Positions 79 to 29,492 of a DNA stretch of 64,000 bases are shown here, in pieces. The stretch is from Pseudomonadota bacterium (GTDB lineage: Bacteria > Pseudomonadota > Alphaproteobacteria > Acetobacterales > Acetobacteraceae), in contig JAJZFA010000059.1 in NCBI GenBank assembly GCA_021805565.1, positions 1,125 through 65,124 of the forward strand. Direction: 5' to 3'. The notes under the pieces were generated by a model. The model was not told the origin of the DNA and searched no databases. It saw only the letters and a program-made list of their open reading frames with translations. Position numbers and translations under genes: made by a program. Position 1 is the stretch's first letter, and each line of letters begins with the position of its first letter.

Positions 79-1134
<1,056 letters not shown>

Positions 1135-1155
1135 TTATGGCGGAAGTGGCGCCGA

Positions 1156-1851
1156 TTATCCACCCGGCGATCGGTGCGCGCCGGAGGAGGCGGACGGTTT
1201 CGGCGGAATGACTGTCAGCCGGCGCATTCCGTCGCGAAGTTTAACGAAGCTGGGTGACCGATTGGCTTCGGGGTCAAGATGCGGGCCGATCCTGTCGGCC
1301 CATTGGTGCTTAATCTGTCCGGGCAGCGGCCAGCCGGCTTTACGAACCGCGGCCGAACCTCCGGGATGAACCGCGTCGGCAAGCCGTTCCCAGGTGCCGC
1401 AGACGGAATCCTGGACATAGGCATCGAGTATGGGTAACCGGGCATTCGGGTATGCGCGTAGCAATGCGGCACGGTCGCCGAAATACCTTGCCTCTGTTTC
1501 CTCGATCGCCAGGCGGAACAGCGCGATCGAGGCGGCACTGCAGGCGGTAGCAAGGGATCTCAGTTCCGACAGGAATGTCACGCGATCGCGATCATCCGCG
1601 TCAAGCACCACGACGACGGCATCGACCCCTGGCGTTTTGACGTAGCCTCGCAGCAAGCGGGGCAGTTGATCGAGCAGAATTCGTTTCGACGAATCGGCCG
1701 ATGACGAAAGCCCAACGGGGATTCGGCCGATACCACGGTAGGAATGGATCCGCCATGTATGCGGTTCGGAAGGTGCGCCGATCAACTTTGGCAGGAGATG
1801 TTCCAGCAACCGGGCGCCCGAACTGTCCTCGGTCAGAATTTCGATGTGCAT
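1156..1851 (-). CDS. Small TOPRIM-like protein (resembles Pfam DUF4276 from memory), partner of the upstream ATPase
   Basis: 231-aa ORF with ATG at 1851, only 2 nt after the stop of the ATPase gene. It has an N-terminal acidic strand MHIEILTED and a hydrophobic strand followed by DxD (VVVVLDADDRD, nt 1591-1602), which is the Glu...DxD layout of TOPRIM folds. No other recognisable domain. Confidence 0.7.
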   Translation of the reverse strand: MHIEILTEDSSGARLLEHLLPKLIGAPSEPHTWRIHSYRGIGRIPVGLSSSADSSKRILLDQLPRLLRGYVKTPGVDAVVVVLDADDRDRVTFLSELRSLATACSAASIALFRLAIEETEARYFGDRAALLRAYPNARLPILDAYVQDSVCGTWERLADAVHPGGSAAVRKAGWPLPGQIKHQWADRIGPHLDPEANRSPSFVKLRDGMRRLTVIPPKPSASSGAHRSPGG

Positions 1852-1853
1852 AA

Positions 1854-3083
1854 CTATGGTGAATCAAGATAGTCGCTGTACCAAAGGCCGCCTAGCGGAA
1901 GACCTTCGGCAACGAGATTTTTGACGATTTCCAGGTCCGAGACATGCCGAACCGCCGAAAATCCGTCAGCCGACTTTTCCAGTATCCAGACTTCCTCGGG
2001 GCTTAGCGCATCGACGAAATAGGGTTGGTGGGTGGTAACGAAAATCTGCGGCGCGTTCCGTCTCCCTGTTGCATGCACCCGGAATTCGCGTGCAAGGGTT
2101 TCCAGGAGTTTGTGATACAGGCCGTTTTCAGGCTCCTCGATACAGATGAACGGCGGCGGATCGGGGTCTTCCAACAGTAGCAGGTAGGTAAACAACTTGA
2201 GCGTGCCGTCCGACATCTGCTGGGCAAAAAACGGATCGTGAAAGCCGGCGTCGTTGAACCGTAACAGAACCCGTTTGTCCTCAGTCACGTGCGTGTCGAT
2301 AGTCCTGATTCCGGGTATGCGCTCAGCGATCCGTCGTAAAATGAAATCGAAACGATCCTTATGCTCCCGCTGCATGAACTGCACGACATTGCCGAGATTG
2401 TCGCCGTGGCTGTTCAAGTGCGCCTGCGGTCCGGCGACCGGCAAACCCCTGGCGGCGTTCGGTTCAAAGTAAGACAGGTACCAGGCCTTCAGGAATTCCC
2501 GAAAGCGGGTAATGCGCGGGTGGTCGCGTAACGTGCCCAACGTCGCGATTCCAAGTTGCCGCATGTCGGTCAGCGCGACCGGCATGCGTTCGTTGGATTC
2601 CTCGCCTTCCACCTCGACTGCGTCCTCGCCCGCCCATACTTCCCCCATTCCGTGTTCCAGACGAAGAAACGGGAACGGGCGCCCGTAACGAGCCCCCTGG
2701 CGGCGTTGCAGCAGCACTTCGGACGCAACAAACGGACGCCCGGACCGATCCAGATCAACAGCGAGTTGGTAAGTAATTGGCCGCTGGTTCTGGGCTTCCC
2801 GGTAGTAAATTTCGAAACGAATCGGTTCTTGAATGCCCCGCGATCGCAGGCGATCGAAGCCGCCGCGCTGCTCTTTGTCGCACGCGGCTTCGACGCCGAT
2901 GGTTAGAGAATCGGCCAGAAAGCCAAGCGCGTCGAAAAGTGTGCTTTTGCCCGCGCCGTTCTTGCCGATGACGACGGTCAACGGCGTAAGCGCGGCTGCG
3001 TCGCCGTCACCCGATAGGCGTCCAAGCGTGACGTCGCACAACGACCTGTAGTTCTGAATGCGGAAACCCTCGATCAGTGCCAT
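1854..3083 (-). CDS. ABC/SMC-type AAA ATPase (AAA_15/AAA_21-like)
   Basis: 409-aa ORF. Walker A GKNGAGKST (nt 2940-2966), signature-like QMSDGT, Walker B PPFICIEEPENGLY and H-loop FVTTHQP, with a long insert between Walker A and the signature as in OLD/AbiL/PARIS-type ATPases. Hand-counted GC on three 60-nt lines is 52-55 %, against 67 % for one ilvC line. Confidence 0.85.
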   Translation of the reverse strand: MALIEGFRIQNYRSLCDVTLGRLSGDGDAAALTPLTVVIGKNGAGKSTLFDALGFLADSLTIGVEAACDKEQRGGFDRLRSRGIQEPIRFEIYYREAQNQRPITYQLAVDLDRSGRPFVASEVLLQRRQGARYGRPFPFLRLEHGMGEVWAGEDAVEVEGEESNERMPVALTDMRQLGIATLGTLRDHPRITRFREFLKAWYLSYFEPNAARGLPVAGPQAHLNSHGDNLGNVVQFMQREHKDRFDFILRRIAERIPGIRTIDTHVTEDKRVLLRFNDAGFHDPFFAQQMSDGTLKLFTYLLLLEDPDPPPFICIEEPENGLYHKLLETLAREFRVHATGRRNAPQIFVTTHQPYFVDALSPEEVWILEKSADGFSAVRHVSDLEIVKNLVAEGLPLGGLWYSDYLDSP

Positions 3084-3151
3084 CGCTCATCCTGTGCGGT
3101 TCCAGCACGAAATGGAAGGTTTCTCGAATGGCCCATCTCGTTGCGATACAG

Positions 3152-3670
3152 TCAGATAACACGACTGCCGCGGGCCAGCGCGGCAATCCCGCTGCGGGAC
3201 ACCTCGGCCAACCCCAAATCCCGCATCAGTTCGATGAACGCATCGATTTTGTCGGTCGCGCCAGTCAGTTCGAAAACGAAACTGCCCAGCGTCGTATCGA
3301 CCACATGGGCGCGGAACGTATCGGCGATGCGCATCGCCTCAACTCGCCGCTCGCCCGTCCCGATCACTTTGATCAGCGCCAGTTCGCGCGCCACATGCGG
3401 CCCGTCCATGGTCAGGTCGGCGACGCGATGCACCGGCACCAGCCGGTCCAGTTGCGCCTTGATCTGTTCGATCACCATGCTTGTGCCGGACGTAACAACA
3501 TTGATGCGGCTGTGCAGCCCGGCGGCATCGACCGGCGCGACCGTCAGGCTGTCGATATTGTAACCGCGGCCGGAAAACAGGCCGATGACGCGCGCCAGCA
3601 CGCCGGATTCGTTATCCACCAGGACCGAAATGGTTGCGCTGCGCGGGGTCGTGTCAGTGGGGCTGAGCAT
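3152..3670 (-). CDS. ilvH: Acetolactate synthase small (regulatory) subunit
   Basis: ACT-domain motif ISVLVDNESGVLARVIGLFSGRGYNIDSLTV. The track ORF (3152-3796) is trimmed to the internal ATG (MLSPTD...) so that it does not overlap ilvI. Start is uncertain (alternative 3721). Confidence 0.9.
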   Translation of the reverse strand: MLSPTDTTPRSATISVLVDNESGVLARVIGLFSGRGYNIDSLTVAPVDAAGLHSRINVVTSGTSMVIEQIKAQLDRLVPVHRVADLTMDGPHVARELALIKVIGTGERRVEAMRIADTFRAHVVDTTLGSFVFELTGATDKIDAFIELMRDLGLAEVSRSGIAALARGSRVI

Positions 3671-3758
3671 CGGATAAACCAGGGTGCGGGGGAAAGTGTG
3701 ATCCGGACGCGGCGGCGTCATGCCCTGCCGCGTCAGGATAGGCAAGAGACAGCAGCGA

Positions 3759-5537
3759 TCAGACCAGCGCCATGCCTGCATCGGTAATGCCGGCACCGGA
3801 TTCCTCGTGTTCAGGCCCCAGCAGCATCTCGTTATGCGCCGCGCCGCTGGGGATCATCGGAAAGCAATTTTCCGCCTGATCCACCGCGATGTCGGCGATT
3901 ACAGCGGTCGGGCAGTCCAGCATTGCGTTGATCACGGCGTCCAGCTCATCGACCGACTGCGCCCGCATTCCGGTTGCATGAAACGAGTCCGCCAGCTTCA
4001 CGAAATCGGGTAGCGCCGCCGAATAGGTTTCCGAATAACGGCTGCCATGCAGCAATTCCTGCCACTGGCGCACCATGCCCATATACTGGTTGTTTAGAAT
4101 GAACACTTTCACCGGCAGGCGGTATTGCGCCAGGGTGCCCATTTCTTGAATGTTCATCAGAATGGAGGCCTCGCCGGCGATATCTATCACGCAGGCATCT
4201 GGATACGCGATTTGCACCCCCATCGCCGCCGGCAATCCGTATCCCATGGTGCCCAGGCCGCCCGATGTCATCCAGCGATTCGGCTTGTCGAAGTGAAAGT
4301 GCTGCGCCGCCCACATCTGGTGCTGCCCGACTTCCGTGGTGATGAACACGTCCTTGCTTCGGGCGCGCGTAATCTCAAACAGGCGCTGGATGGCATATTG
4401 CGGCTTGATGATCCCGCCGCGCGCCATGTTCTGGGTGAACTTCAGGCTGTCCTTGCCCCGCCACGTGTCGATCTGCCGCCACCACGATGCCAGCGCGGGC
4501 TTGTCGGACGGCGCGTCGCTGGCTTGCCAGGCCGCCACCAAAGCGGCCAGCGCCTTGCCGGCATCGGCGATGATGGGCACCTCGACCGGGACGTTCTTGT
4601 TGATCGACGACCCATCGATATCGATGTGGATCTTCCGGGAATCCGGGCTGAACGCATTCAACCGCCCGGTCACCCGGTCGTCGAACCGGGCGCCCACCGC
4701 CAACAGCATGTCGCAGCCGTGCATGGCCAGGTTGGCCTCGTACGTGCCGTGCATTCCCAGCATGCCCAGAAATTGCGGGTCGCTCGCCGGATAGCAGCCC
4801 AGCCCCATCAGCGTATTGGTAACCGGAAACCCGGTCATCCGGGCAAGCCGCGTCAATGCGTCCGACGCGGCCGGCCCGGCATTGATGACGCCGCCGCCGG
4901 CATAGATCATCGGCCGTTTCGCCTGCTTCATCAGCGCGACGGCCTTGGCGATCTGGCCCAGATCGGGCTCGGTCCGCGGACGATAGCTGGCGTGCTGGAC
5001 CGCCGGTTCGGCATACGGCGCCTTGTTGATGACGATGTCCTTGGGGAGATCGACCACCACCGGGCCGGGCCGGCCGCTGCGGGCAACATAGAACGCCTCA
5101 TGCACGACGCGCGCGAGGTCCTCGCCGCGCTTGACCAGATAATTGTGTTTCGTCGCCGGCCGCGTAATGCCGGTGGTGTCGGCTTCCTGGAATGCATCGT
5201 TGCCGATCAGATGCGTCGGCACCTGACCGGTCAGGCATACCAGCGGGATGCTGTCCATCAGCGCGTCCACCAGACCCGTAACCGCGTTGGTCGCGCCCGG
5301 CCCCGATGTCACCAGAACCACGCCGACCTTGCCGGTGGACCTTGCATAGCCTTCTGCCGCATGTACCGCCGCCTGTTCGTGCCGCACCAGGATGTGACGG
5401 ATGGCGTTCTGCTGAAACAACGCATCATAAATCGGCAGGACCGCGCCGCCGGGATAGCCGAAAATAACCTCAACGCCCTGATCCTTAAGGGCACGAAGAA
5501 GGATTTCCGCTCCCGACTGAGTCCATTCCGCCGACAT
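3759..5537 (-). CDS. ilvI: Acetolactate synthase large (catalytic) subunit, TPP-dependent
   Basis: Full-length AHAS: SGAEILLRALKDQGVEVIFGYPGGAVLPIYDAL and the TPP-binding GGLGTMGYGLPAAMG...NNQYMGMVRQWQ. Start set at the ATG giving MSAEWTQ (the longest ORF reaches 5597 and would overlap miaA). Confidence 0.95.
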   Translation of the reverse strand: MSAEWTQSGAEILLRALKDQGVEVIFGYPGGAVLPIYDALFQQNAIRHILVRHEQAAVHAAEGYARSTGKVGVVLVTSGPGATNAVTGLVDALMDSIPLVCLTGQVPTHLIGNDAFQEADTTGITRPATKHNYLVKRGEDLARVVHEAFYVARSGRPGPVVVDLPKDIVINKAPYAEPAVQHASYRPRTEPDLGQIAKAVALMKQAKRPMIYAGGGVINAGPAASDALTRLARMTGFPVTNTLMGLGCYPASDPQFLGMLGMHGTYEANLAMHGCDMLLAVGARFDDRVTGRLNAFSPDSRKIHIDIDGSSINKNVPVEVPIIADAGKALAALVAAWQASDAPSDKPALASWWRQIDTWRGKDSLKFTQNMARGGIIKPQYAIQRLFEITRARSKDVFITTEVGQHQMWAAQHFHFDKPNRWMTSGGLGTMGYGLPAAMGVQIAYPDACVIDIAGEASILMNIQEMGTLAQYRLPVKVFILNNQYMGMVRQWQELLHGSRYSETYSAALPDFVKLADSFHATGMRAQSVDELDAVINAMLDCPTAVIADIAVDQAENCFPMIPSGAAHNEMLLGPEHEESGAGITDAGMALV

Positions 5538-5593
5538 ATGTCCGGCTCCCATTGCTGAAGACGGCGGACGGATAGGCCCACAAGGCGGCAGGG

Positions 5594-6553
5594 TCAATCC
5601 TCGCTTTCAATAAATGTGAACAAATCGCGGCGTTCACTTTCTGAAAATTGCTGAACTGAACAAACTCTCGAATGAATAATGCGTACGCGGGTCTGCGGTG
5701 CAAGTGTGCGATGACGGAACCACGTCGCCTGGCGCTTGGTGTAATGACTGGTTACCTGTTCCGTGCGCTGACCAGCCTGGTCCAGGGTCAGCGTGCCGCG
5801 AAGGTAAGCCGATAGTTCCGGAACACCGTGCGCGCGCATCGCCGGCAGGCTGGGATCGAGACCCAGCGTCAGAAAGTTGCGGACTTCGTCCAGTGCGCCG
5901 TCGCGCAGCATGGTGCCGAAGCGGGTCGCGATGGCGACGCGCAGTGCGTCGCGGGGTGGATCGAGCAAAATCGCCGTAAACCGCCAGGGTGCCGGCGTTC
6001 CCTGGCGTGCCTGCCACGCCGCGAGACCGATCCCGGTACTCCGCCAGACTTCCCAGGCCCGAGCTATTCGCTGGCCGTCCCCGGTATTCAGGCGCGCGGC
6101 GGTTGCGGGATCGATCCGCGCCAGACTGGCATGCAACGCGGCCGGACCCTGGTCCGCCAGCAGACGCCTCGCCTCCGCACGGGCGTCCTGACCTGGATCG
6201 GGAATATCGGCGAGGCCGCCGGTCAGTGCGGCGAAATACATCCCGGTGCCGCCCGTCAGAATGGGCATACGGCCGGCCGCGTGAATGTCTTCCATCGCCG
6301 AAAGGGCCTGCTGGCGCCACCACGCTACACTGCCGGCTTCGGCTGCCGGACGGACGCCATACAAACGATGCGGCACCTGGGCTTCTTCCCCTGGCGTGGG
6401 CCGCGCGGTTAAAATCCGTAGTTCCCGGTACACCTGCATCGAGTCGGTGTTGACGATCGTTCCGCCCAGTTGTTCGGCAATACCAAGCGCGAGCGCCGAT
6501 TTTCCGCTCGCGGTCGGGCCGGCGACGATCAATGCTTTGGGCAGCGAGGCCAT
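5594..6553 (-). CDS. miaA: tRNA dimethylallyltransferase
   Basis: 319 aa. P-loop GPTASGKSALAL followed by DSMQVYRELRILTARP, typical of MiaA. Confidence 0.93.
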   Translation of the reverse strand: MASLPKALIVAGPTASGKSALALGIAEQLGGTIVNTDSMQVYRELRILTARPTPGEEAQVPHRLYGVRPAAEAGSVAWWRQQALSAMEDIHAAGRMPILTGGTGMYFAALTGGLADIPDPGQDARAEARRLLADQGPAALHASLARIDPATAARLNTGDGQRIARAWEVWRSTGIGLAAWQARQGTPAPWRFTAILLDPPRDALRVAIATRFGTMLRDGALDEVRNFLTLGLDPSLPAMRAHGVPELSAYLRGTLTLDQAGQRTEQVTSHYTKRQATWFRHRTLAPQTRVRIIHSRVCSVQQFSESERRDLFTFIESED

Positions 6554-6822: not shown

Positions 6823-7698
6823 ATGTCTTATATATTGACCGTCGTCGCCCAGCGGGAGGCCACCAGCCTGACCCCCGTGCTTCTCAATCATATTCGCAAT
6901 GCCGTGCGCGGCGCGCCGCCAATTGTCCTTTCCGCCGGGGAAGCCGCCGATATCCCGCTGACCGCGCCGTTCGATCCGGCCGCGCTGCACGCGGCGTTGG
7001 ACGGCAAACCCATCGATGCCATCGTGACCAAGACGCGTGGGCGGCGCAAGGCGCTGCTGGTCGCCGACATGGACAGTACTATTGTCACCGGGGAGACCCT
7101 GGACGAACTGGCCACGTTCGCCGGCGTTGGGGACAAGATCGCCGCGATTACCAAGCGCGCGATGAACGGCGAGATCGACTTCAAGGCCGCGCTTCGCGCG
7201 CGTGTCGCGATGCTGAAAGGTCTTGATACCGGCGCGTTAGAAAGTACCTGGCGCCAGATCCGCCTTACCCCAGGCGCTCGGGAACTTGTCGCCACCATGC
7301 GCTCAAAAGGAGCGTTGACCGCGCTGGTGTCCGGCGGATTCACCTTTTTCACCGGCAAGGTCGCGGCCGAACTGGGATTCGACGTGCATCGGTCCAACAT
7401 GCTGCTGGACGATGGCGCGGTGCTGACGGGGGAAGTCGGGGAACCAATCCTCGATCGTGACAGCAAGCGCGCGGCCCTGACCGAACTGGCGGTTCAACGG
7501 GGTATCAGGCTGCATGCCACCCTGGCGGTTGGTGACGGGGCGAACGATCTGGATATGATCCGGGCCGCCGGCCTGGGTGTGGCGTTCCATGCCAAGCCGG
7601 TCGTGGCGAAAGAAGCTGGGGCGAAGGTCGAATATGCCGATTTGCGGGCGCTGCTGTTTGCGCAGGGTTATCCGGCTTCCGCTTTCGTCACGCCCTGA
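6823..7698 (+). CDS. serB: Phosphoserine phosphatase (HAD family)
   Basis: HAD motif I DMDSTIV, motif VSGGF and GDGANDL. Start placed at the internal ATG 6823 (MSYILTVV); the track ORF starts at 6784. Confidence 0.9.
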   Translation: MSYILTVVAQREATSLTPVLLNHIRNAVRGAPPIVLSAGEAADIPLTAPFDPAALHAALDGKPIDAIVTKTRGRRKALLVADMDSTIVTGETLDELATFAGVGDKIAAITKRAMNGEIDFKAALRARVAMLKGLDTGALESTWRQIRLTPGARELVATMRSKGALTALVSGGFTFFTGKVAAELGFDVHRSNMLLDDGAVLTGEVGEPILDRDSKRAALTELAVQRGIRLHATLAVGDGANDLDMIRAAGLGVAFHAKPVVAKEAGAKVEYADLRALLFAQGYPASAFVTP

Positions 7699-7762
7699 GT
7701 GCGGAATTCTCCGTGTTTGGATTGCGGTGGCCAACCCGCCCTGAGCAACGGTTGACCGGCCG

Positions 7763-7790
7763 CATTACCGGCGTGCTGACGCCGGTAATG
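7763..7790. terminator. Perfect 11-bp stem hairpin between convergent serB and degP-like genes
   Basis: CATTACCGGCG-tgctga-CGCCGGTAATG read directly from the sequence. It sits in the 104-nt convergent gap. There is no clear U-tract, so terminator function is inferred. Confidence 0.5.
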
Positions 7791-7802
7791 CCGATCCTGC
7801 CG

Positions 7803-9341
7803 TTATCCCGGCTGCTTGTCCTTGCCGGCTGGGGCTTTGGACAGCGACAACGGCACATATTGGACGCCGCCCTCACGTTGGACCAGCATCAGCACAAACT
7901 TCCGATCGGCCTTGCGGGCTGCCTCCACCTGTTTTTGCACGTCATCCGGAGTGGAAACCTCTGCCTGTTGCACCTCCACGATAACATCGCCCGGCTTTAA
8001 GCCCCGTTCCGCCGCCGACGTATTCGGGGACACATCGGTGATGACGACACCCTTCTGACCGTCCTGAAGCTGGAACTTCTCCTTTATGTCCGGTGTCATC
8101 GGCGCCACCTTAAGCCCCAGACCGGCGATGCTGGTGGGCTTGGCTGCATCCGCCGGCTTTCCCGCATCGGCCGAGGCAAGCTGTGCGTCGGCCGGCCGTT
8201 CCGCCAGCGTGGTCTGCACGATGAGTTCCTTGCCATCGCGCCATAGCACCACCGGCACATCCTTGCCCACGTCGGCGTCCGCGACGATGCGCGGCAGATT
8301 GTGCATTTCCTTCACGTCCTGGCCATCGAACTTCAGGATGATGTCGCCGGCGCGGATTTTCGATTTCTCGGCCGGTCCGCCGTCGGTAACCCCGGCAACC
8401 ATTGCGCCGGATGCGTCCTTCAACCCCAGGCTTTCCGCGATATCTGGCGTCACCTGCTGAATTTTGACCCCGAGCCAGCCGCGCCGGGCATGGCCATATT
8501 GCTTGATTTGGGCGATGGTCAGCTTCGCCATGTTGGATGGGATCGAGAAGCCGATACCGATCGATCCACCCGACGGCGAGAAGATTGCCGTATTGATGCC
8601 GATCACCTGCCCGTCCATGTTGAACAGCGGGCCACCGGAATTCCCGCGGTTGATCGCCGCGTCGGTTTGGATGAAATCGTCATACTGGCCCTGATGGATG
8701 TCGCGCCCGCGCGCCGAAACGATTCCGGCGGTGACAGTGCCGCCCAGCCCGAACGGATTGCCGATCGCCAGCACCCAGTCGCCGACGCGGGATTGGCTGG
8801 AATCGCCGAAATCGACGGTCGGCAAGGGCTTGTCGGATTTGACCTTCAGCAGTGCCAGATCGCCGCTTTCATCGCGCCCGACGATCTCGGCCTTCAGGGT
8901 CGTGCCGTCCTGAAGCGTGACGGATACCTCATCGGCGCCCTCGATGACGTGGTTGTTGGTCACGACGTAACCCGCCGGATCGATGATGAAGCCCGACCCC
9001 AGACTTTGTGCCCGGCGTGCCGGGGCGGCCGGGCCGTCCTCGCCGCCGCCCTGACCCTGATGGTTATGGTTGAGGAAGTCCTTGAAGAACTGTTCGAACG
9101 GCGAACCCGGCGGAAATGTGGGCATTTCCGGCGTTGCGTTCGGGTTACCGGCCTTGGCGGCGATGGTCTGACTGGACGACACGTTGACCACGGCAGGCAG
9201 TAATTTCGCGGCCAGATCGGCGAAGCTGTCCGGGGCGCCGCGGGCGGTGGCTGGTTGCACCCATGAGGCGACCGGCGCGGTCAGCGCGAATGACAAACCC
9301 AGCAAGGCAGCGCGGGCGGCGGTGGGACGGAACAGGCGCAT
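7803..9341 (-). CDS. Periplasmic serine endoprotease, DegP/DegQ (Do) family, two PDZ domains
   Basis: Signal peptide MRLFRPTAARAALLGLSFALTAPVASW. Trypsin-like catalytic motifs TNNHV, DLALLK and GNSGGPLF. Two PDZ-like segments. Start at the ATG at 9341. Confidence 0.92.
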   Translation of the reverse strand: MRLFRPTAARAALLGLSFALTAPVASWVQPATARGAPDSFADLAAKLLPAVVNVSSSQTIAAKAGNPNATPEMPTFPPGSPFEQFFKDFLNHNHQGQGGGEDGPAAPARRAQSLGSGFIIDPAGYVVTNNHVIEGADEVSVTLQDGTTLKAEIVGRDESGDLALLKVKSDKPLPTVDFGDSSQSRVGDWVLAIGNPFGLGGTVTAGIVSARGRDIHQGQYDDFIQTDAAINRGNSGGPLFNMDGQVIGINTAIFSPSGGSIGIGFSIPSNMAKLTIAQIKQYGHARRGWLGVKIQQVTPDIAESLGLKDASGAMVAGVTDGGPAEKSKIRAGDIILKFDGQDVKEMHNLPRIVADADVGKDVPVVLWRDGKELIVQTTLAERPADAQLASADAGKPADAAKPTSIAGLGLKVAPMTPDIKEKFQLQDGQKGVVITDVSPNTSAAERGLKPGDVIVEVQQAEVSTPDDVQKQVEAARKADRKFVLMLVQREGGVQYVPLSLSKAPAGKDKQPG

Positions 9342-9437
9342 GATCGGGTTTCCTGGCGAGTTGGCCGCAAAAAAGTCCGGAAGCTTCAGCCTAACAGTTT
9401 TTCCAGCGCATAACACGAGACGTTCAAACACCGCCCC

Positions 9438-10334
9438 CTAATGAGCTGGGTCGGGCCTGGGCGAAAGATCGACGGGAGGCGCCTGGAGATAGCGCAAATA
9501 GTCGTTGTCCGGCGACACCACAAGGCGCGCCGCACCGCTGTCGAAGATATCGCGATAGCCCTGCATGGTCCTCCAGAATGAGAAAAACACCGGATCTTGA
9601 CCGAATGCCCTGGCATAGATCGCCGTCGCCTCGCCTTCCCCTTCGCCGCGGAGGTTGTCAGCCTTTGCCCTGGCATCGGCGACCAGCACGGTACGCTCGC
9701 GTTCGGCGTCGGCTTTGATCTTCTGCGACGCTTCGGCACCCTCCGCCCGGGCCTGAGCGGCGACACGCTGGCGTTCAGACTTCATGCGCGACAGAATCGC
9801 GTCGGTATTTTCCTGTGGCAGGTCGGCCCGGCGAATGCGGACATCGACAATCGTCACGCCGAAGTTCTGCATTTCGGTGTTCACCTGACCCCGGATGGTG
9901 GACATGATCCGCTCGCGATCGGCCGACAGCACATCCTGAAGCGTGTTGTTACCCAAAACCCGCCGGAGGCTGCCGGTGACCACCGAATTCAGCCGGCCCC
10001 TGATATTGTCCGGTATCGGGCCAATCGCCTGATAGAATCGCAGCGGATCGGTGATGCGGAACACCGTGAAGGTATCTACGATCAGCCGTCGCTGTTCCCC
10101 AAGGATCACTTCCTCGCCCGGCAGTTCTACCGCCAGCAGGCGCTTGTCGAAGGTTATGATGTTCTGCGCGACCGGCCATTTCGCGTGCAGTCCCGGGTCT
10201 TCGATTACCCGTTCCACCTTGCCGAATTGGGCGACGAGCACCTGTTCGGTCTGCGACACGGTGAACAGGCTGGCACTGGCGATAACCGCCAGGACAAAAA
10301 GGGCGGCGGCGCCCGCGATGGCGATACGGTTCAT
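9438..10334 (-). CDS. hflC: Protease modulator HflC (SPFH/band-7)
   Basis: 298 aa with an N-terminal TM helix and an SPFH domain. 4-nt overlap with the hflK stop. Confidence 0.92.
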   Translation of the reverse strand: MNRIAIAGAAALFVLAVIASASLFTVSQTEQVLVAQFGKVERVIEDPGLHAKWPVAQNIITFDKRLLAVELPGEEVILGEQRRLIVDTFTVFRITDPLRFYQAIGPIPDNIRGRLNSVVTGSLRRVLGNNTLQDVLSADRERIMSTIRGQVNTEMQNFGVTIVDVRIRRADLPQENTDAILSRMKSERQRVAAQARAEGAEASQKIKADAERERTVLVADARAKADNLRGEGEGEATAIYARAFGQDPVFFSFWRTMQGYRDIFDSGAARLVVSPDNDYLRYLQAPPVDLSPRPDPAH

Positions 10335-11671
10335 CGGCCGGCTCCCGCCGATGCGGACGACGCCGGCGCGACCGGCGCCACCAGCTTCGGCGGCGGCACA
10401 TTCAATGGCAGGAACGGCACCAGGCCCTTGAGCTTGTCGTCAACGATCAGCGGCTGCGAATGGGCCAGCACATCCTCCATCGTGTCGAGATACATCCGTC
10501 GTAAGGTGATGTCCTTCGCCGCTTGATAGGCTTTGAAAACACTTTCGAACTGCTGGGCCTGACCGGTCGCCTGGGCAACCGAGGCAGCCTTCGCGCCCTG
10601 GCCCTCGGCGACGATACGCGCCGCGTCGCCGCGCGCACGGGGAACGATATCGTTGCGGTAAGACTCGGCCTCGTTGCGCATGCGTTCGGCATCGGTGTTC
10701 GCCCGCTGCACGTCGCGGAAACTTTCGATCACCGCCGCGGGGGGATCGACCTTTTGAAGCTGGACCTGGGTAATTTCAACGCCCGCTTTATAGCGGTCCA
10801 GGATTTCCTGGGTTTGTTTGAACACATCGGCCTCGATCTGGGCGCGTAACTGGGTCAGCGCCGGCTGAATCGGTGTGCGGCCGATAACCTCGCGCATCGA
10901 ACTTTCGGCCACCGCTCGGACCAGGGTTTCCGGATTGGCCGTATTGAAAAGAAAAGCCGGGGCATCGTTGATGCGCCAGAACACCGCGACATCGATATCG
11001 ATGATATTTTCGTCGCCCGTCAACATCAGGCTCTCGGCTTGAACATCGATCCCGGCGGCATCGCGGCCTGCTTCCATGGTGCCGCTGTTGGCCGAACGAT
11101 AGCCGATTTCGGTGCGATTGATGCGTGTCACGGTCGGCAGTTCCACGGTTTCCATCGGCCATGGCAGATGCCAGTGCAGGCCGGGCGGGGTCCAGTACTC
11201 ATAAGCGCCGAAGCGCAGTACGACGCCCTGCTCGTCGGGTTGCACCCGATAAAAGCCGCTGCCGGTCCAGACCAGCACAACCAGCAAACACAGCAGCGTC
11301 AGGCCGCGGCCGTTGGCAAAGCCGCCGAAACCACCGGGCATGCCACCGCCGCGCCGGCCGCCCGACCCGCCGCCCATCAATCCCCGAATGTAGGCCTGAA
11401 CCCCAGCGATCAGCCGGTCCAGATCGGGCGCGCCGCCGCCGCCGAATGGGCCACCGCCACCGCCACCACCACCACCGCCACCGCCAAACGGGTTGCCGGG
11501 ACGTTTTCCGCCCGGATTTCCGCTGCCGCCAGGACGGTCCGCCTCAGGGCCGGGCCGGCCGGCGCCGGGATTCGCACCTTTGTTGCCCCAAGGGCCTTGC
11601 GCCGGCTTTTTGTCGTCGCCGCCGTCTGACGGGTCGCCCCAGGGGCCGGGACCGCCGTTATTCCAAGGCAT
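10331..11671 (-). CDS. hflK: Protease modulator HflK (SPFH/band-7) with Gly-rich N-terminal region
   Basis: SPFH domain plus TM helix. N-terminal low-complexity Gly/Pro region including an 11-Gly run. Start set at the ATG giving MPWNNGGPGPWG (the track ORF extends to 11770). Confidence 0.9.
   Translation of the reverse strand: MPWNNGGPGPWGDPSDGGDDKKPAQGPWGNKGANPGAGRPGPEADRPGGSGNPGGKRPGNPFGGGGGGGGGGGGPFGGGGAPDLDRLIAGVQAYIRGLMGGGSGGRRGGGMPGGFGGFANGRGLTLLCLLVVLVWTGSGFYRVQPDEQGVVLRFGAYEYWTPPGLHWHLPWPMETVELPTVTRINRTEIGYRSANSGTMEAGRDAAGIDVQAESLMLTGDENIIDIDVAVFWRINDAPAFLFNTANPETLVRAVAESSMREVIGRTPIQPALTQLRAQIEADVFKQTQEILDRYKAGVEITQVQLQKVDPPAAVIESFRDVQRANTDAERMRNEAESYRNDIVPRARGDAARIVAEGQGAKAASVAQATGQAQQFESVFKAYQAAKDITLRRMYLDTMEDVLAHSQPLIVDDKLKGLVPFLPLNVPPPKLVAPVAPASSASAGAGR
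11451..11485 (-). repeat. GGY-codon simple repeat encoding the poly-Gly tract in HflK
   Basis: The plus-strand ccaccgccaccgccaccaccaccaccgccaccgcc encodes GGGGGGGGGGG on the minus strand. Confidence 0.6.
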
Positions 11672-11828
11672 GAAGGGTGTGGCTCCTGTCGGACTGTGCG
11701 GTTGGCCGCCGCGTGCGCGAGCCGTTGGCGGAAACGGGATGAAGCGCCATATCGGGCTGGACAGGCGCATGCGGCGCGGTGCTTATCCGCCGGCCGTGTA
11801 AGCTTTGCAAGATAAGGGTTCAACAGCC

Positions 11829-12935
11829 ATGGTCGATGCTACCCCGGAGTCTCTGCGTGCCGCGTTGCGCGCCATCGTGGACCCGGCGTCCGGACGCGAT
11901 ATCGTCGCCGCCGGACTGGTCGAGGCGATCGAAGTCCGCGGTGGTCTGGTGCAGGCGGCATTGCTGACCGACCGGGCGCATGCGGCGGCGATGGAGCCGG
12001 TGCGTCGTGCAGCCGAAGCATTATTGATGCGCCAGCCCGGGGTCACCAACGCTACCGCGATTCTGACCGCGCACAAAGCGCCTGCCGCATCGAAGCCGGC
12101 CGCGGGCCATGTGCCTGGCGGTAAGGCCGCGCTGTTGCTGCCGGACGTGAAGGCCATTGTCGCCGTGGCGTCGGGCAAGGGTGGCGTCGGCAAGTCCACC
12201 GTCGCGGTTAATCTCGCGGTTTCGCTGGCGCGGCAAGGCCGTAAGGTTGGGCTTCTCGATGCCGATATTTATGGGCCGAGCCTGCCCCGGATGATCGGGT
12301 TGAACCGGAAGCCGGAGGTGAGGAACGATAAGATGATCCCGCTTCAGGCCTGGGGCCTGTCGTGCATGTCGATCGGCTTTCTGGTGGATGAGGAAACCCC
12401 GATGATCTGGCGGGGTCCTATGGTGATGGGCGCACTGGAACAGATGATGGGTCAGGTCGAATGGGGCGCCTTGGACATCCTGATAGTCGATATGCCGCCG
12501 GGCACCGGAGACGCGCAACTGACCATGGCGCAGCGGGTCGCGCTGACCGGGGCCGTTATCGTCTCCACGCCGCAGGACATCGCGCTGATCGACGCTCGCC
12601 GCGGCGTGCGGATGTTCGAGAAAACCAAGGTGCCGGTGCTGGGGCTGGTTGAGAACATGAGTTTTTATTGCTGTCCGAACTGCGGCCATCGCGCCGATAT
12701 CTTCGGCCATGGCGGCGCCCGGACCGAGGCGGCCCATCTGGGAGCGGAGTTTTTGGGCGAGATACCGTTGTTGCTGGATATTCGGGTGGCCGCCGACGTT
12801 GGCACCCCGATCGCCGCGTCGGCGCCGGACGGCGAGGCGGCCAAGGCCTACGCCGCGCTAGCCGTTCGGGTGTGGGATAAAGTGACCGGCGCGGTGGCGA
12901 CCGGAAGCGCCGGCCCTCGGATTGTTATCGGCTGA
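11829..12935 (+). CDS. apbC: Fe-S cluster carrier ATPase Mrp/ApbC/NBP35 family
   Basis: N-terminal DUF59-like domain, deviant Walker A ASGKGGVGKST and CPNCGH motif. Alternative start at 11805. Confidence 0.9.
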   Translation: MVDATPESLRAALRAIVDPASGRDIVAAGLVEAIEVRGGLVQAALLTDRAHAAAMEPVRRAAEALLMRQPGVTNATAILTAHKAPAASKPAAGHVPGGKAALLLPDVKAIVAVASGKGGVGKSTVAVNLAVSLARQGRKVGLLDADIYGPSLPRMIGLNRKPEVRNDKMIPLQAWGLSCMSIGFLVDEETPMIWRGPMVMGALEQMMGQVEWGALDILIVDMPPGTGDAQLTMAQRVALTGAVIVSTPQDIALIDARRGVRMFEKTKVPVLGLVENMSFYCCPNCGHRADIFGHGGARTEAAHLGAEFLGEIPLLLDIRVAADVGTPIAASAPDGEAAKAYAALAVRVWDKVTGAVATGSAGPRIVIG

Positions 12936-13101
12936 GGGCAGCATCGGCAATCGGTGCGACGTTCCACAACCTTGTGTCCCCCGATACAAAGCGTCGTCGG
13001 CCTGGCCTTCGCCGCCGCGACAGGACACCGGTCAATCAGTCCGGTGAAAGTCGGGCGGGGACGCACAATATCGACGGTCAGGACGCTAGAGGAGAGAGCG
13101 C

Positions 13102-13299
13102 GTGTTCCTGGTACGTTCGATAACGTTTTTGGCGGCGCTGGGTTTGGCTGCAATGCTGAGCGGATGCGTAGCCTATCCCGCCTATCCGGTTTATGGCGGC
13201 TATCCGGTGTATGGAGGGTATCCCGCTTACGGCTATAGCTACGCGCCGGTTTACCCTGGCGGTTACTATGGGGGCTGGGGCGGCTGGTGGCGCCGTTAA
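13102..13299 (+). CDS. Small lipoprotein with Tyr/Pro/Gly repeats and a GGWGGWWRR tail
   Basis: 65 aa. Lipobox LSGC after a hydrophobic signal (MFLVRSITFLAALGLAAMLSGC). The mature part is about 43 aa of YPxYG-type repeats. Coding status rests on the signal/lipobox and the in-frame repeat only. Confidence 0.55.
   Translation: MFLVRSITFLAALGLAAMLSGCVAYPAYPVYGGYPVYGGYPAYGYSYAPVYPGGYYGGWGGWWRR
13174..13236 (+). repeat. In-frame degenerate tandem repeat (YPAYPVYGGYPVYGGYPAYGY)
   Basis: Reiterated tatcc(n)g..tatgg(n)gg(n) units are visible in the DNA and translate to YPxYGG units. Confidence 0.5.
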
Positions 13300-29416: not shown

Positions 29417-29492
29417 GTCCCGTTCGTCTAGAGGCCCAGGACAGTGCCCTCTCACGGCACCAACAGGGGTTCGAATCCCCTACGGGACGCCA
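29417..29492 (+). tRNA. tRNA-Glu (anticodon CUC)
   Basis: 76 nt, GTCCCGTTCGTCTAGAGGCCCAGGACAGTGCCCTCTCACGGCACCAACAGGGGTTCGAATCCCCTACGGGACGCCA. Acceptor stem GTCCCGT/ACGGGAC, T-loop GGTTCGAATCC, anticodon loop CT-CTC-AC and encoded CCA. Near-identical architecture to E. coli tRNA-Glu. Confidence 0.9.

Follow-up and report, generated by a model that had tools for sequence, protein, structure and literature searches.

We analyzed a stretch of 64,000 nucleotides (nt) from an Acetobacteraceae genome (GenBank assembly GCA_021805565.1, contig JAJZFA010000059.1, positions 1,125 to 65,124 of the forward strand), referred to here as the window, and within it a pair of genes situated in the ilvIH-ilvC branched-chain amino-acid cluster. 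An initial annotation had described two co-oriented genes separated by 2 nt between ilvC and ilvH/ilvI, and both the open reading frame (ORF) listing and the junction sequence bear this out: gene 1 (minus strand, 1854..3083, 409 amino acids (aa)) and gene 2 (minus strand, 1156..1851, 231 aa) each start with ATG, and the stop of the former and the start of the latter read TAG-tt-ATG on the same strand. By sequence, the pair is a self-contained cassette of the PADLOC candidate phage-defense family HEC-01, because both proteins match the hidden Markov models of the family over their full length and the two genes are adjacent on one strand. Gene 1 matches HEC-01A (PDLC04182) with E = 1.3e-185, residues 1-408 aligning to positions 1-402 of the 406-position profile; for gene 2 and HEC-01B (PDLC04205) E is 1.4e-87, and residues 1-211 align to positions 1-211 of 213, so that the PADLOC run suggested in the initial annotation identified both genes. 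The pair and its motifs are as follows.

1854..3083, minus strand: gene 1, ABC-type ATPase (PADLOC HEC-01A; Pfam AAA_21 and AAA_15)
2940..2966, minus strand: Walker A (P-loop) GKNGAGKST, aa 40-48; G40, N42, G43, G45 and K46 in 80/80 homologues, K41 in 76/80, S47 in 78/80, T48 in 63/80, position 44 variable
2202..2219, minus strand: ABC signature-like QMSDGT, aa 289-294, kept in 79-80 of 80 homologues
2127..2150, minus strand: Walker B FICIEEPE with the catalytic Glu, aa 312-319, followed by the D-loop region; C314, E316, E317, P318 and E319 in 80/80 homologues, F312 in 79/80, I313 in 76/80, I315 in 79/80
2022..2036, minus strand: H-loop TTHQP, aa 350-354, in 80/80 homologues
1852..1853, minus strand: 2-nt spacer between gene 1 and gene 2 (from the sequence)
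1156..1851, minus strand: gene 2, divergent DUF4276-family protein, putative TOPRIM-like metal-dependent nuclease (PADLOC HEC-01B)
1825..1848, minus strand: HIEILTED, aa 2-9, strand β1 followed by Glu8 (also E4 and D9), at the TOPRIM glutamate position (model and alignments)
1585..1617, minus strand: VVVVLDADDRD, aa 79-89, end of strand β3 with D84-x-D86, at the TOPRIM DxD position (model and alignments)
1498..1503, minus strand: E117-E118 just past strand β4, with E120 two residues on; conserved acidic residues and candidate second-metal ligands

Gene 1 encodes an ABC ATPase

Both domains that the initial annotation had expected from a profile search of gene 1 scored above the Pfam gathering threshold, AAA_21 with 140.7 bits (E = 1.4e-40; cut-off 27) and AAA_15 with 54.6 bits (E = 1.8e-14; cut-off 32.1), and the Walker A, signature-like, Walker B and H-loop motifs were all found at the residues given there. 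Across the 80 homologues these motifs are invariant or nearly so, except at Walker A positions 44 and 48. Gene 1 is therefore an intact ABC ATPase of the OLD/AriA/GajA type (the AAA_15/AAA_21 group). Against PDB sequences, gene 1 returned the P-loop of OLD (6p74) alone, with E = 0.009.

Gene 2 is a divergent member of the DUF4276 family

The protein encoded by the window's gene 2 has no Pfam match at E<=1 or E<=10, PF14103 (DUF4276) included, and no NCBIfam match. PF14103 was matched by 50 of 52 close relatives (best E = 1.1e-8) and by 71 of 72 diverse relatives (best E = 1.3e-14), and proteins 68% identical to gene 2 carry the NCBI name 'DUF4276 family protein'. Gene 2 is thus assigned to DUF4276 as a divergent member lying below the reach of the Pfam model, its membership being transitive via these relatives. 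The DUF4276 assignment of the initial annotation was right at the family level by the same matches, and the expected PF14103 hit was obtained for the relatives and not for the window protein itself. About 5000 relatives of gene 2 are detectable in a large protein collection, forming 709 clusters at 50% identity.

The HIEILTED (from aa 2) and VVVVLDADDRD (from aa 79) motifs to which the initial annotation had drawn attention are present, and their acidic residues E8, D84 and D86 are invariant in two alignments of gene 2 (A1 and A2) and at least 90% conserved in an alignment of the family with a mean identity of 32% (A4). A1 and A2 likewise show no substitution of E118, and A4 none of E120; for E117 and E118, too, conservation extends down to 32% mean identity. 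At the other end of the protein, gene 2 copies of the ilv clade, which total 223-232 aa, carry a variable Pro/Ser-rich C-terminal tail (window 1156-1200, residues ~217-231); copies embedded in BREX loci are 217 aa long and have no such tail.

A first AlphaFold2 model of gene 2, built from a shallow alignment, had a predicted local distance difference test score (pLDDT) of 70.9, and a deeper alignment, to which the relatives of a distant member (~33% identical) were added, raised this to 89.9 with a predicted template modeling score of 0.85. The C-terminal tail was modeled with low confidence (pLDDT about 66-68). The core of the model runs β1(2-7)-α-β2(32-37)-α-β3(76-84)-α-β4(110-115) and is followed by a helical C-terminal domain, with the acidic residues placed at the C-terminal ends of the strands: E8 after β1, D84-x-D86 ending β3, and E117/E118 after β4. 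Agreement with the three-layer α/β TOPRIM architecture was judged from strand positions along the sequence, the order of the strands within the sheet not being directly readable. Recurrent secondary Pfam matches among the 72 diverse relatives, all sub-threshold, were exclusively to TOPRIM-nuclease families, namely DUF3226 (n = 6), RloB (n = 4, best E = 6.6e-4) and OLD-like_TOPRIM (PF20469; n = 4, best E = 2.8e-3), and further secondary matches were to DUF4435 (n = 1, E = 5.4e-3) and OLD-like_TOPRIM_1 (n = 1). In published work, HEC-01B was set against BpOLD and assigned to TOPRIM from topology and motifs (doi 10.1101/2024.01.29.577857), and DUF4276 and RloB were treated as new members of the Toprim superfamily by the same topology and motif criteria (PMC12065111). 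On the basis of topology, motif placement and the recurrent weak Pfam cross-matches, we regard gene 2 as a probable, not a proven, TOPRIM-like nuclease.

HEC-01 as a catalogued family

HEC-01 (Hma-embedded candidate 01) was described by Payne et al. in 2024 as a cassette pairing an ABC ATPase with a TOPRIM protein within Hma systems, and its authors compared it with OLD, Gabija and PARIS (doi 10.1101/2024.01.29.577857). It has been present in PADLOC-DB since 2023 (v2). The pairing of an ATPase with a TOPRIM-like effector proposed in the initial annotation agrees with this description and with the PADLOC models for both genes; the accompanying statement that the system was uncharacterized has to be withdrawn, as the family was already catalogued and has been cloned twice, with mixed results. 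A 2026 Nat Commun study (PMC12881386) took one HEC-01 representative as a PADLOC-defined cluster and reports that E. coli B was thereby protected against one or more of the phages T7, T5 and T4; another 2026 paper still treats HEC-01 as unvalidated. With the literature on anti-phage activity thus mixed, the window pair is a candidate defense system by family membership.

Junctions, flanking genes and base composition

The pair forms an insertion of ~2 kb between ilvH and ilvC, and ilvI, ilvH, the pair and ilvC all lie on one strand, with ilvH/ilvI occupying 3152..5597 (minus strand). The flanks and junctions are as follows.

3152..3670, minus strand: ilvH (acetolactate synthase small subunit), upstream flank; start taken from 172-aa calls in relatives
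3084..3151, minus strand: left insertion junction, 68-nt spacer between the ilvH stop and the gene 1 ATG, with an AGGA Shine-Dalgarno sequence 8 nt before this ATG
1099..1155, minus strand: right insertion junction, 57-nt spacer between the gene 2 stop and the start codon of ilvC, holding the ilvC AAAGGA ribosome-binding site
79..1098, minus strand: ilvC (ketol-acid reductoisomerase, KARI), downstream flank (ORF; Pfam KARI_N and KARI_C in locus L001)

At the junction between gene 1 and gene 2, no Shine-Dalgarno sequence precedes gene 2, and the arrangement TAG/TAA-NN-ATGCAY is kept in 15 of 16 same-locus relatives. Because gene 2 has no Shine-Dalgarno sequence of its own there, the two genes are probably translationally coupled via the conserved 2-nt junction. 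The listed ilvH ORF (3152-3796, 214 aa, GTG start) overlaps ilvI by 38 nt; since relatives are called as 172 aa, the true ilvH start is probably the Met at about 3670. In locus L001 (contig DAHWBK010000073.1, 12349-13762), an IS21-type IstB gene and a 114-aa ORF follow directly past ilvC up to the contig end, outside the 64-kb window. A tRNA-Glu(CTC) at 29417-29492 is the sole RNA gene in the window (Rfam gathering threshold, ARAGORN).

The initial annotation had read a low GC content of the ATPase gene as consistent with horizontal acquisition. Whole-gene GC contents are 0.58 (gene 1), 0.614 (gene 2) and 0.605 (ilvC), that of the window is 0.63, and a local dip to 54% lies at 1801-2400. The only composition measure in which the pair differs from the ilv genes is GC content at third codon positions (GC3), 0.66-0.68 against 0.77-0.78, and this lies at about the 25th percentile among the window's ORFs and is not an outlier. 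We therefore rejected a recent horizontal transfer read from GC content: the composition is now host-like, the insertion is old, and inheritance within the clade is vertical.

A single old insertion in the Rhodopila-like clade

Of the 80 species representatives, 16 show the order miaA-ilvI-ilvH-[gene 1-gene 2]-ilvC, as do two additional genomes, including a Rhodopila sp. chromosome, and a Rhodopila-like Acetobacteraceae clade has the pair at this position in no fewer than 19 loci. In neighbor-joining trees of gene 1 and of gene 2 alike, the ilv-locus copies are monophyletic and stand apart from all others. In a tree of IlvI+IlvC the filled loci all fall within one clade, whose sub-groups for the most part match those in the trees of the two genes, and all loci outside it are empty. 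The pair was absent from all 80 of the closest metagenome ilvH loci, most of which have ilvH followed by ilvC after 4-350 nt, and relatives with an empty site include some whose IlvC is 87-92% identical to that of the window. Because the copies are monophyletic in both trees, the filled loci form one IlvI+IlvC clade and the sites outside it are empty, we conclude that the pair was inserted once, in the same orientation, in the ancestor of the Rhodopila-like clade and has since been inherited vertically under strong purifying selection. In comparisons of the window with 16 same-locus relatives, the median ratio of nonsynonymous to synonymous substitution rates (dN/dS) was 0.065 (gene 1) and 0.107 (gene 2); ilvC, ilvI and miaA gave 0.076, 0.128 and 0.171, respectively.

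Four empty loci (L089, L090, L092 and L093) are nested within the filled clade, and no remnants of gene 1 or gene 2 were found at these sites, which indicates either secondary loss or limited resolution of the tree. The window junctions show no target-site duplication and no mobile-element ends. In one relative, L034, the left junction (4191-4271) contains a 35-nt pseudo-copy of that locus's own ilvC start (ACCATGCGCGTCTATTACGACCGCGACGCC...), identical at 32 of 35 positions; the alignment scores 53, and shuffled sequences reach 24 at most. Nothing comparable was found in the other 15 filled loci, and the copy looks like a footprint of insertion at the 5′ end of ilvC that is seen in this lineage alone.

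Repeated capture at a hotspot, an idea that came from locus L074, was rejected, as the ilv copies are monophyletic in both trees and the L074 gene 2 groups with that of L083 as it does in the housekeeping tree. At L074 (a Rhodopila metagenome-assembled genome (MAG), 8757-10681), gene 1 is 65% identical to that of the window, and ilvH, ilvI and ilvC are 92-97% identical (ilvH 97%); this gene 1 may have evolved at an accelerated rate, or the ATPase may have undergone partial allelic replacement. Given the monophyly in both trees and the placement of its gene 2, we take L074 as part of the one insertion with uneven rates.

Several relatives show further variation around the site. At L006 (Rhodopila sp., 5.2-Mb contig, 10839-13163) the pair follows ilvH and the class I ilvC is replaced by an opposite-strand 494-aa KARI gene, followed by a PIN-domain gene. 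Two loci with unexpected taxonomic labels, L012 (a MAG labeled Nitrosovibrio sp. Nv4) and L011 (labeled Asaia bogorensis), have the Rhodopila-type order miaA-ilvI-ilvH-pair-ilvC and an IlvC 92-93% identical to that of the window, and the L012 contig looks mis-binned in its betaproteobacterial Nitrosovibrio bin. The ilvH-ilvC spacer also takes unrelated small inserts in several relatives. L013 (8122-8769), which has the pair, and L090 (5495-6178), which does not, have in common an ORF of ~215-230 aa whose N-terminus is hydrophobic, the two copies being 74.6% identical along 523 nt; a spacer ORF at L099 (1538-2626) resembles, by eye, a REP-associated/IS200-like tyrosine transposase; and other spacer ORFs, also judged by eye, are of 364 aa at L117 (5480-6620), ~183 aa at L166 (3742-4405) and 147 aa at L134 (2625-3149).

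Distribution and genomic neighborhoods outside the ilv locus

A scan of species-representative genomes returned 549 relatives, of which we examined the best 80, all 60-75% identical to gene 2. These span Alpha-, Beta- and Gammaproteobacteria, Desulfobacterota, Deinococcales, Gemmatimonadetes, Actinomycetes, Planctomycetia and Verrucomicrobiales, and in nearly all 80 loci the ATPase gene lies immediately upstream of gene 2. Of the 65 non-ilv loci, 17 have type 3 BREX genes around the pair, and among the 42 of at least 12 kb the number is 15; the flanking genes are BrxF, BrxC/PglY, PglXI, a BrxH-type helicase, PglZ and BrxA, and the usual order is PglXI-[pair]-(SLFN/HATPase)-BrxH-PglZ-BrxA. In 5 further non-ilv loci a large type III-like methyltransferase gene is directly upstream of the pair. 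The nearest neighbors in non-BREX loci include JetC/JetD (Wadjet) and dGTPase genes and also plain housekeeping genes, and no BREX gene was found within 10-kb flanks in 27 of the 42 loci of at least 12 kb. A conjugative Pseudomonas plasmid carries a homologue 48% identical to gene 2, with an adjacent AAA family ATPase gene, between type IV secretion system (T4SS) and MobF genes; such carriage is rare, with 2 hits for the family among 72,556 plasmid records and 1 among 50,697 phage records.

The cassette spreads horizontally across phyla and often lies within type 3 BREX loci. The co-occurrence of the two genes and the defense-island setting, which the initial annotation had proposed to check, are thus seen in the upstream ATPase of nearly all 80 loci and in the 17 BREX-embedded copies. 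It had also named, as an outcome that would speak against a defense module, a pair that is vertically conserved in all relatives and never found near defense genes; inheritance at the ilv locus is indeed vertical, but elsewhere the pair is BREX-embedded and relatives of the window have empty sites.

Among the BREX-embedded copies, L035 (~3000-5000) and L086 (~7000-10000) have two gene 1-like ATPase genes, as a tandem or nearby duplicate, with a single gene 2. In L007 (3858-5294), and also in L019 and L025, a PD-T7-3-like gene (PADLOC PDLC04108, 2.3e-43) lies between BrxC and PglXI, in the same type 3 BREX loci as the pair, and these loci therefore hold two embedded cassettes each.

Transcription of the pair

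No sigma-70-like promoter was found in the ilvH-gene 1 spacer (3084..3151), a consensus scan that is weak evidence in an alphaproteobacterium. The scans returned 1 promoter-like and 7 terminator-like sites, neither count above shuffled controls and hence uninformative; one hairpin (3188..3163) lies within the 3′ end of ilvH. The same weak consensus scanning gave neither a promoter of this kind nor a convincing terminator between the pair and ilvH or ilvC. The pair is probably read through from the ilvIH promoter.

Discussion

Taken together, we propose that the pair is a HEC-01 cassette encoding an ATPase-gated TOPRIM-like nuclease, that it derives from a single old insertion at the ilv locus, and that it is expressed by read-through from ilvIH, a reading to which we assign a probability of roughly 75%. 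By analogy with PARIS, Gabija, OLD and Septu, gating is the most likely mechanism. The ATPase encoded by gene 1 would oligomerize and hold or gate the nuclease encoded by gene 2; on sensing a signal from the phage or an altered nucleotide state, the ATPase would then free or activate the metal-dependent nuclease, which might cut phage DNA, or host tRNA or other RNA as in PARIS, and such cleavage would halt infection.

Several observations weigh against this reading. At the ilv locus no defense gene lies near the pair, and a fixed place inside a biosynthetic operon is atypical for defense genes. We infer co-transcription with ilvIH beside promoter and terminator scans that are uninformative, and across the family the nuclease activity, its substrate, its trigger and the contact between ATPase and nuclease are all putative. 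Structural searches of gene 2 also gave little: Foldseek found no match for the model with pLDDT 70.9, and for the model with pLDDT 89.9 it found none at E<1e-3 in PDB or BFVD. The best PDB match of the latter (E = 0.023) was to flavodoxin-like lumazine synthases, which are parallel α/β folds, and TOPRIM proteins were absent from its PDB top 50; the weak BFVD list does include DNA topoisomerases, a primase and an RloB-like protein, the best named TOPRIM match (E 0.05). Gene 2 profiles returned noise alone from PDB sequences (a tape-measure protein, Msh2), and hhalign comparison of the family profiles with P2 Old, as a single sequence, gave non-significant probabilities of 0.4-2.6%, its single local alignment setting ILTED on the LLVEGKTE glutamate motif of P2 Old without statistical support. 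The TOPRIM reading of the initial annotation therefore stands on its Glu...DxD layout, the topology and the Pfam cross-matches, while the fold similarity it had expected from a search of TOPRIM structures was not reproduced by Foldseek. On the functional side, cloned HEC-01 gave no protection in the test of Payne et al. (doi 10.1101/2024.01.29.577857), and the study that reports protection gives no effect size (PMC12881386).

Alternatively, the pair could be a selfish, toxin-antitoxin-like addiction cassette, in which a TOPRIM-like toxin is restrained by the ATPase and persistence results from costly loss instead of phage protection. Pfam labels AAA_21 'putative AbiEii toxin, Type IV TA system', the plasmid relative lies between T4SS and relaxase genes of a conjugative plasmid that has stb stabilization genes, the pair is often alone among housekeeping genes and has long been retained at the ilv site without other defense genes, coupling at the conserved 2-nt junction would hold the two proteins at a fixed ratio, and one heterologous test showed no defense (doi 10.1101/2024.01.29.577857). 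We nevertheless consider addiction unlikely, as purifying selection at core-gene levels fits any function and is not specific to addiction, the clean empty sites L089, L092 and L093 inside the filled clade suggest that loss is non-lethal, and BREX embedding, the methyltransferase link and the one positive phage assay (PMC12881386) point to defense; the two ideas also overlap, abortive-infection systems often being toxin-antitoxin-like. Highly improbable, in our estimate, is that the pair is an accessory module of a methylation-based system such as type 3 BREX, Hma or a MADS-like system, with the ilv copy an inactive or partly active orphan. The 17 of 65 non-ilv loci in type 3 BREX, the 5 more directly downstream of a large type III-like methyltransferase, the analogous ATPase and DUF4276 pair Mad3/Mad4 within the 8-gene MADS (PMC12065111), to whose MAD3 gene 1 has a weak match, and the lack of protection by HEC-01 cloned alone in one study (doi 10.1101/2024.01.29.577857) would fit such a role. 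However, purifying selection on the two genes is strong in at least 16 genomes with a stand-alone pair, most non-ilv loci have no BREX nearby (27 of 42 of those of at least 12 kb), and a HEC-01 representative protected E. coli B as a PADLOC-defined cluster (PMC12881386). Because the stand-alone copy has been under strong purifying selection across the divergence of a clade of at least 19 loci, our data suggest that the pair functions autonomously, without need of BREX or Hma.

The position of the pair within a metabolic cluster raises two further ideas. In the boldest reading, a mobile HEC-01 cassette would now be a fixed, co-transcribed part of the ilvIH-ilvC operon in Rhodopila-like Acetobacteraceae, its level or activity tracking branched-chain amino-acid supply; this is a speculation that we hold to be distinctly unlikely. 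If true, the capture by the operon would amount to a starvation-coupled abortive-infection switch or to a domesticated housekeeping nuclease, and would be a case in which a core metabolic operon captured a defense module and retained it through speciation. Domestication outright, that is, a housekeeping role in RNA processing or turnover or in DNA repair within the Rhodopila-like clade, with expression tied to ilvIH-ilvC and to branched-chain amino-acid status, seems to us improbable to a still greater degree. RNase M5 offers a precedent for a TOPRIM protein in RNA processing. The pair is oriented as ilvI, ilvH and ilvC with spacers of 68 and 57 nt and no promoter detected, its position is kept in the at least 19 loci of the clade, its dN/dS values of 0.065 and 0.107 are comparable to those of ilvC and ilvI, its GC3 has drifted toward the host range, and the gene 2 of the ilv clade has gained the Pro/Ser-rich tail absent in BREX-embedded copies. 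Yet the ilv proteins remain 65-75% identical to BREX-embedded copies with all catalytic residues unchanged and no sign of a change in function, several members of the same clade have no pair, which makes it dispensable, and the unrelated small genes that land in the same spacer make the site look permissive and not functionally linked.

We return to a HEC-01 cassette carried by a single old insertion as the preferred reading. What is new here is the long-term fixation of the pair in the ilvIH-ilvC cluster of the Rhodopila-like clade, away from defense genes; the family itself is catalogued, and in other respects the pair is an ordinary instance of it and opens up no new type of biology. As a candidate defense system HEC-01 is widespread (709 small-subunit clusters at 50% identity), with conflicting experimental results, and the Rhodopila-like clade offers a natural comparison of filled and empty sites.

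Comparison with other ATPase and TOPRIM systems

The pair resembles OLD and GajA in combining an ABC ATPase with a putative TOPRIM nuclease, and 4 of the 72 diverse gene 2 relatives weakly match PF20469. It differs from them in consisting of two ORFs with a stop between, as opposed to one fused polypeptide, and neither sequence searches nor Foldseek gave a significant match to a solved structure of OLD or GajA; unlike in Gabija, there is no adjacent GajB-like helicase gene. AbiL has in common with the pair a two-gene layout of an ATPase (AbiLi) and a small TOPRIM-like protein, which in AbiL is RloB-like (AbiLii). Gene 1 matches PADLOC AbiLi (1.7e-25), RloB is weakly matched by 4 of 72 gene 2 relatives (best 6.6e-4), and the BFVD match with E 0.05 is to an RloB-like viral protein, whereas gene 2 itself has no RloB or AbiLii match, the families being distantly related.

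MADS is an 8-gene methylation-associated defense system in which Mad3/Mad4 form a pair of an AAA ATPase and a DUF4276 protein (PMC12065111). The window likewise pairs an ABC ATPase with a DUF4276 member, and gene 1 weakly matches MAD3 (NCBIfam NF047739, 88.6 bits; PADLOC mad3, 6e-18). With the NF047739 cut-off at 420 bits gene 1 is, however, no equivalog, gene 2 has no PADLOC mad4 match, and the other six mad genes are absent at the window locus, where the neighbors are ilv genes. PARIS, composed of the ABC ATPase AriA and the DUF4435 TOPRIM nuclease AriB (PMC11464382), shares the split between an AAA_15/AAA_21 ABC ATPase and a separate small TOPRIM-type effector. Gene 1 matches the PADLOC AriA models (5e-35 and 1.6e-16), a match to the generic AAA_21-like core, but gene 2 matches no AriB/DUF4435 model, HEC-01 models being its only matches in PADLOC and DUF4435 appearing in 1 of 72 relatives (5.4e-3). 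As a mechanistic template, in which an ATPase scaffold frees a nuclease on a trigger, PARIS is the best available for the pair.

The closest counterpart is HEC-01 itself. The window copy differs from the described systems in lying in the ilvIH-ilvC cluster instead of an Hma, BREX or other defense locus, in being inherited vertically within its clade, and in a gene 2 that has a Pro/Ser-rich C-terminal tail and falls under Pfam DUF4276 detection. It shares with them an ABC ATPase gene upstream of a small TOPRIM-like gene, matches to both family models over their full length, and close homologues that reside in methylation-based defense loci.

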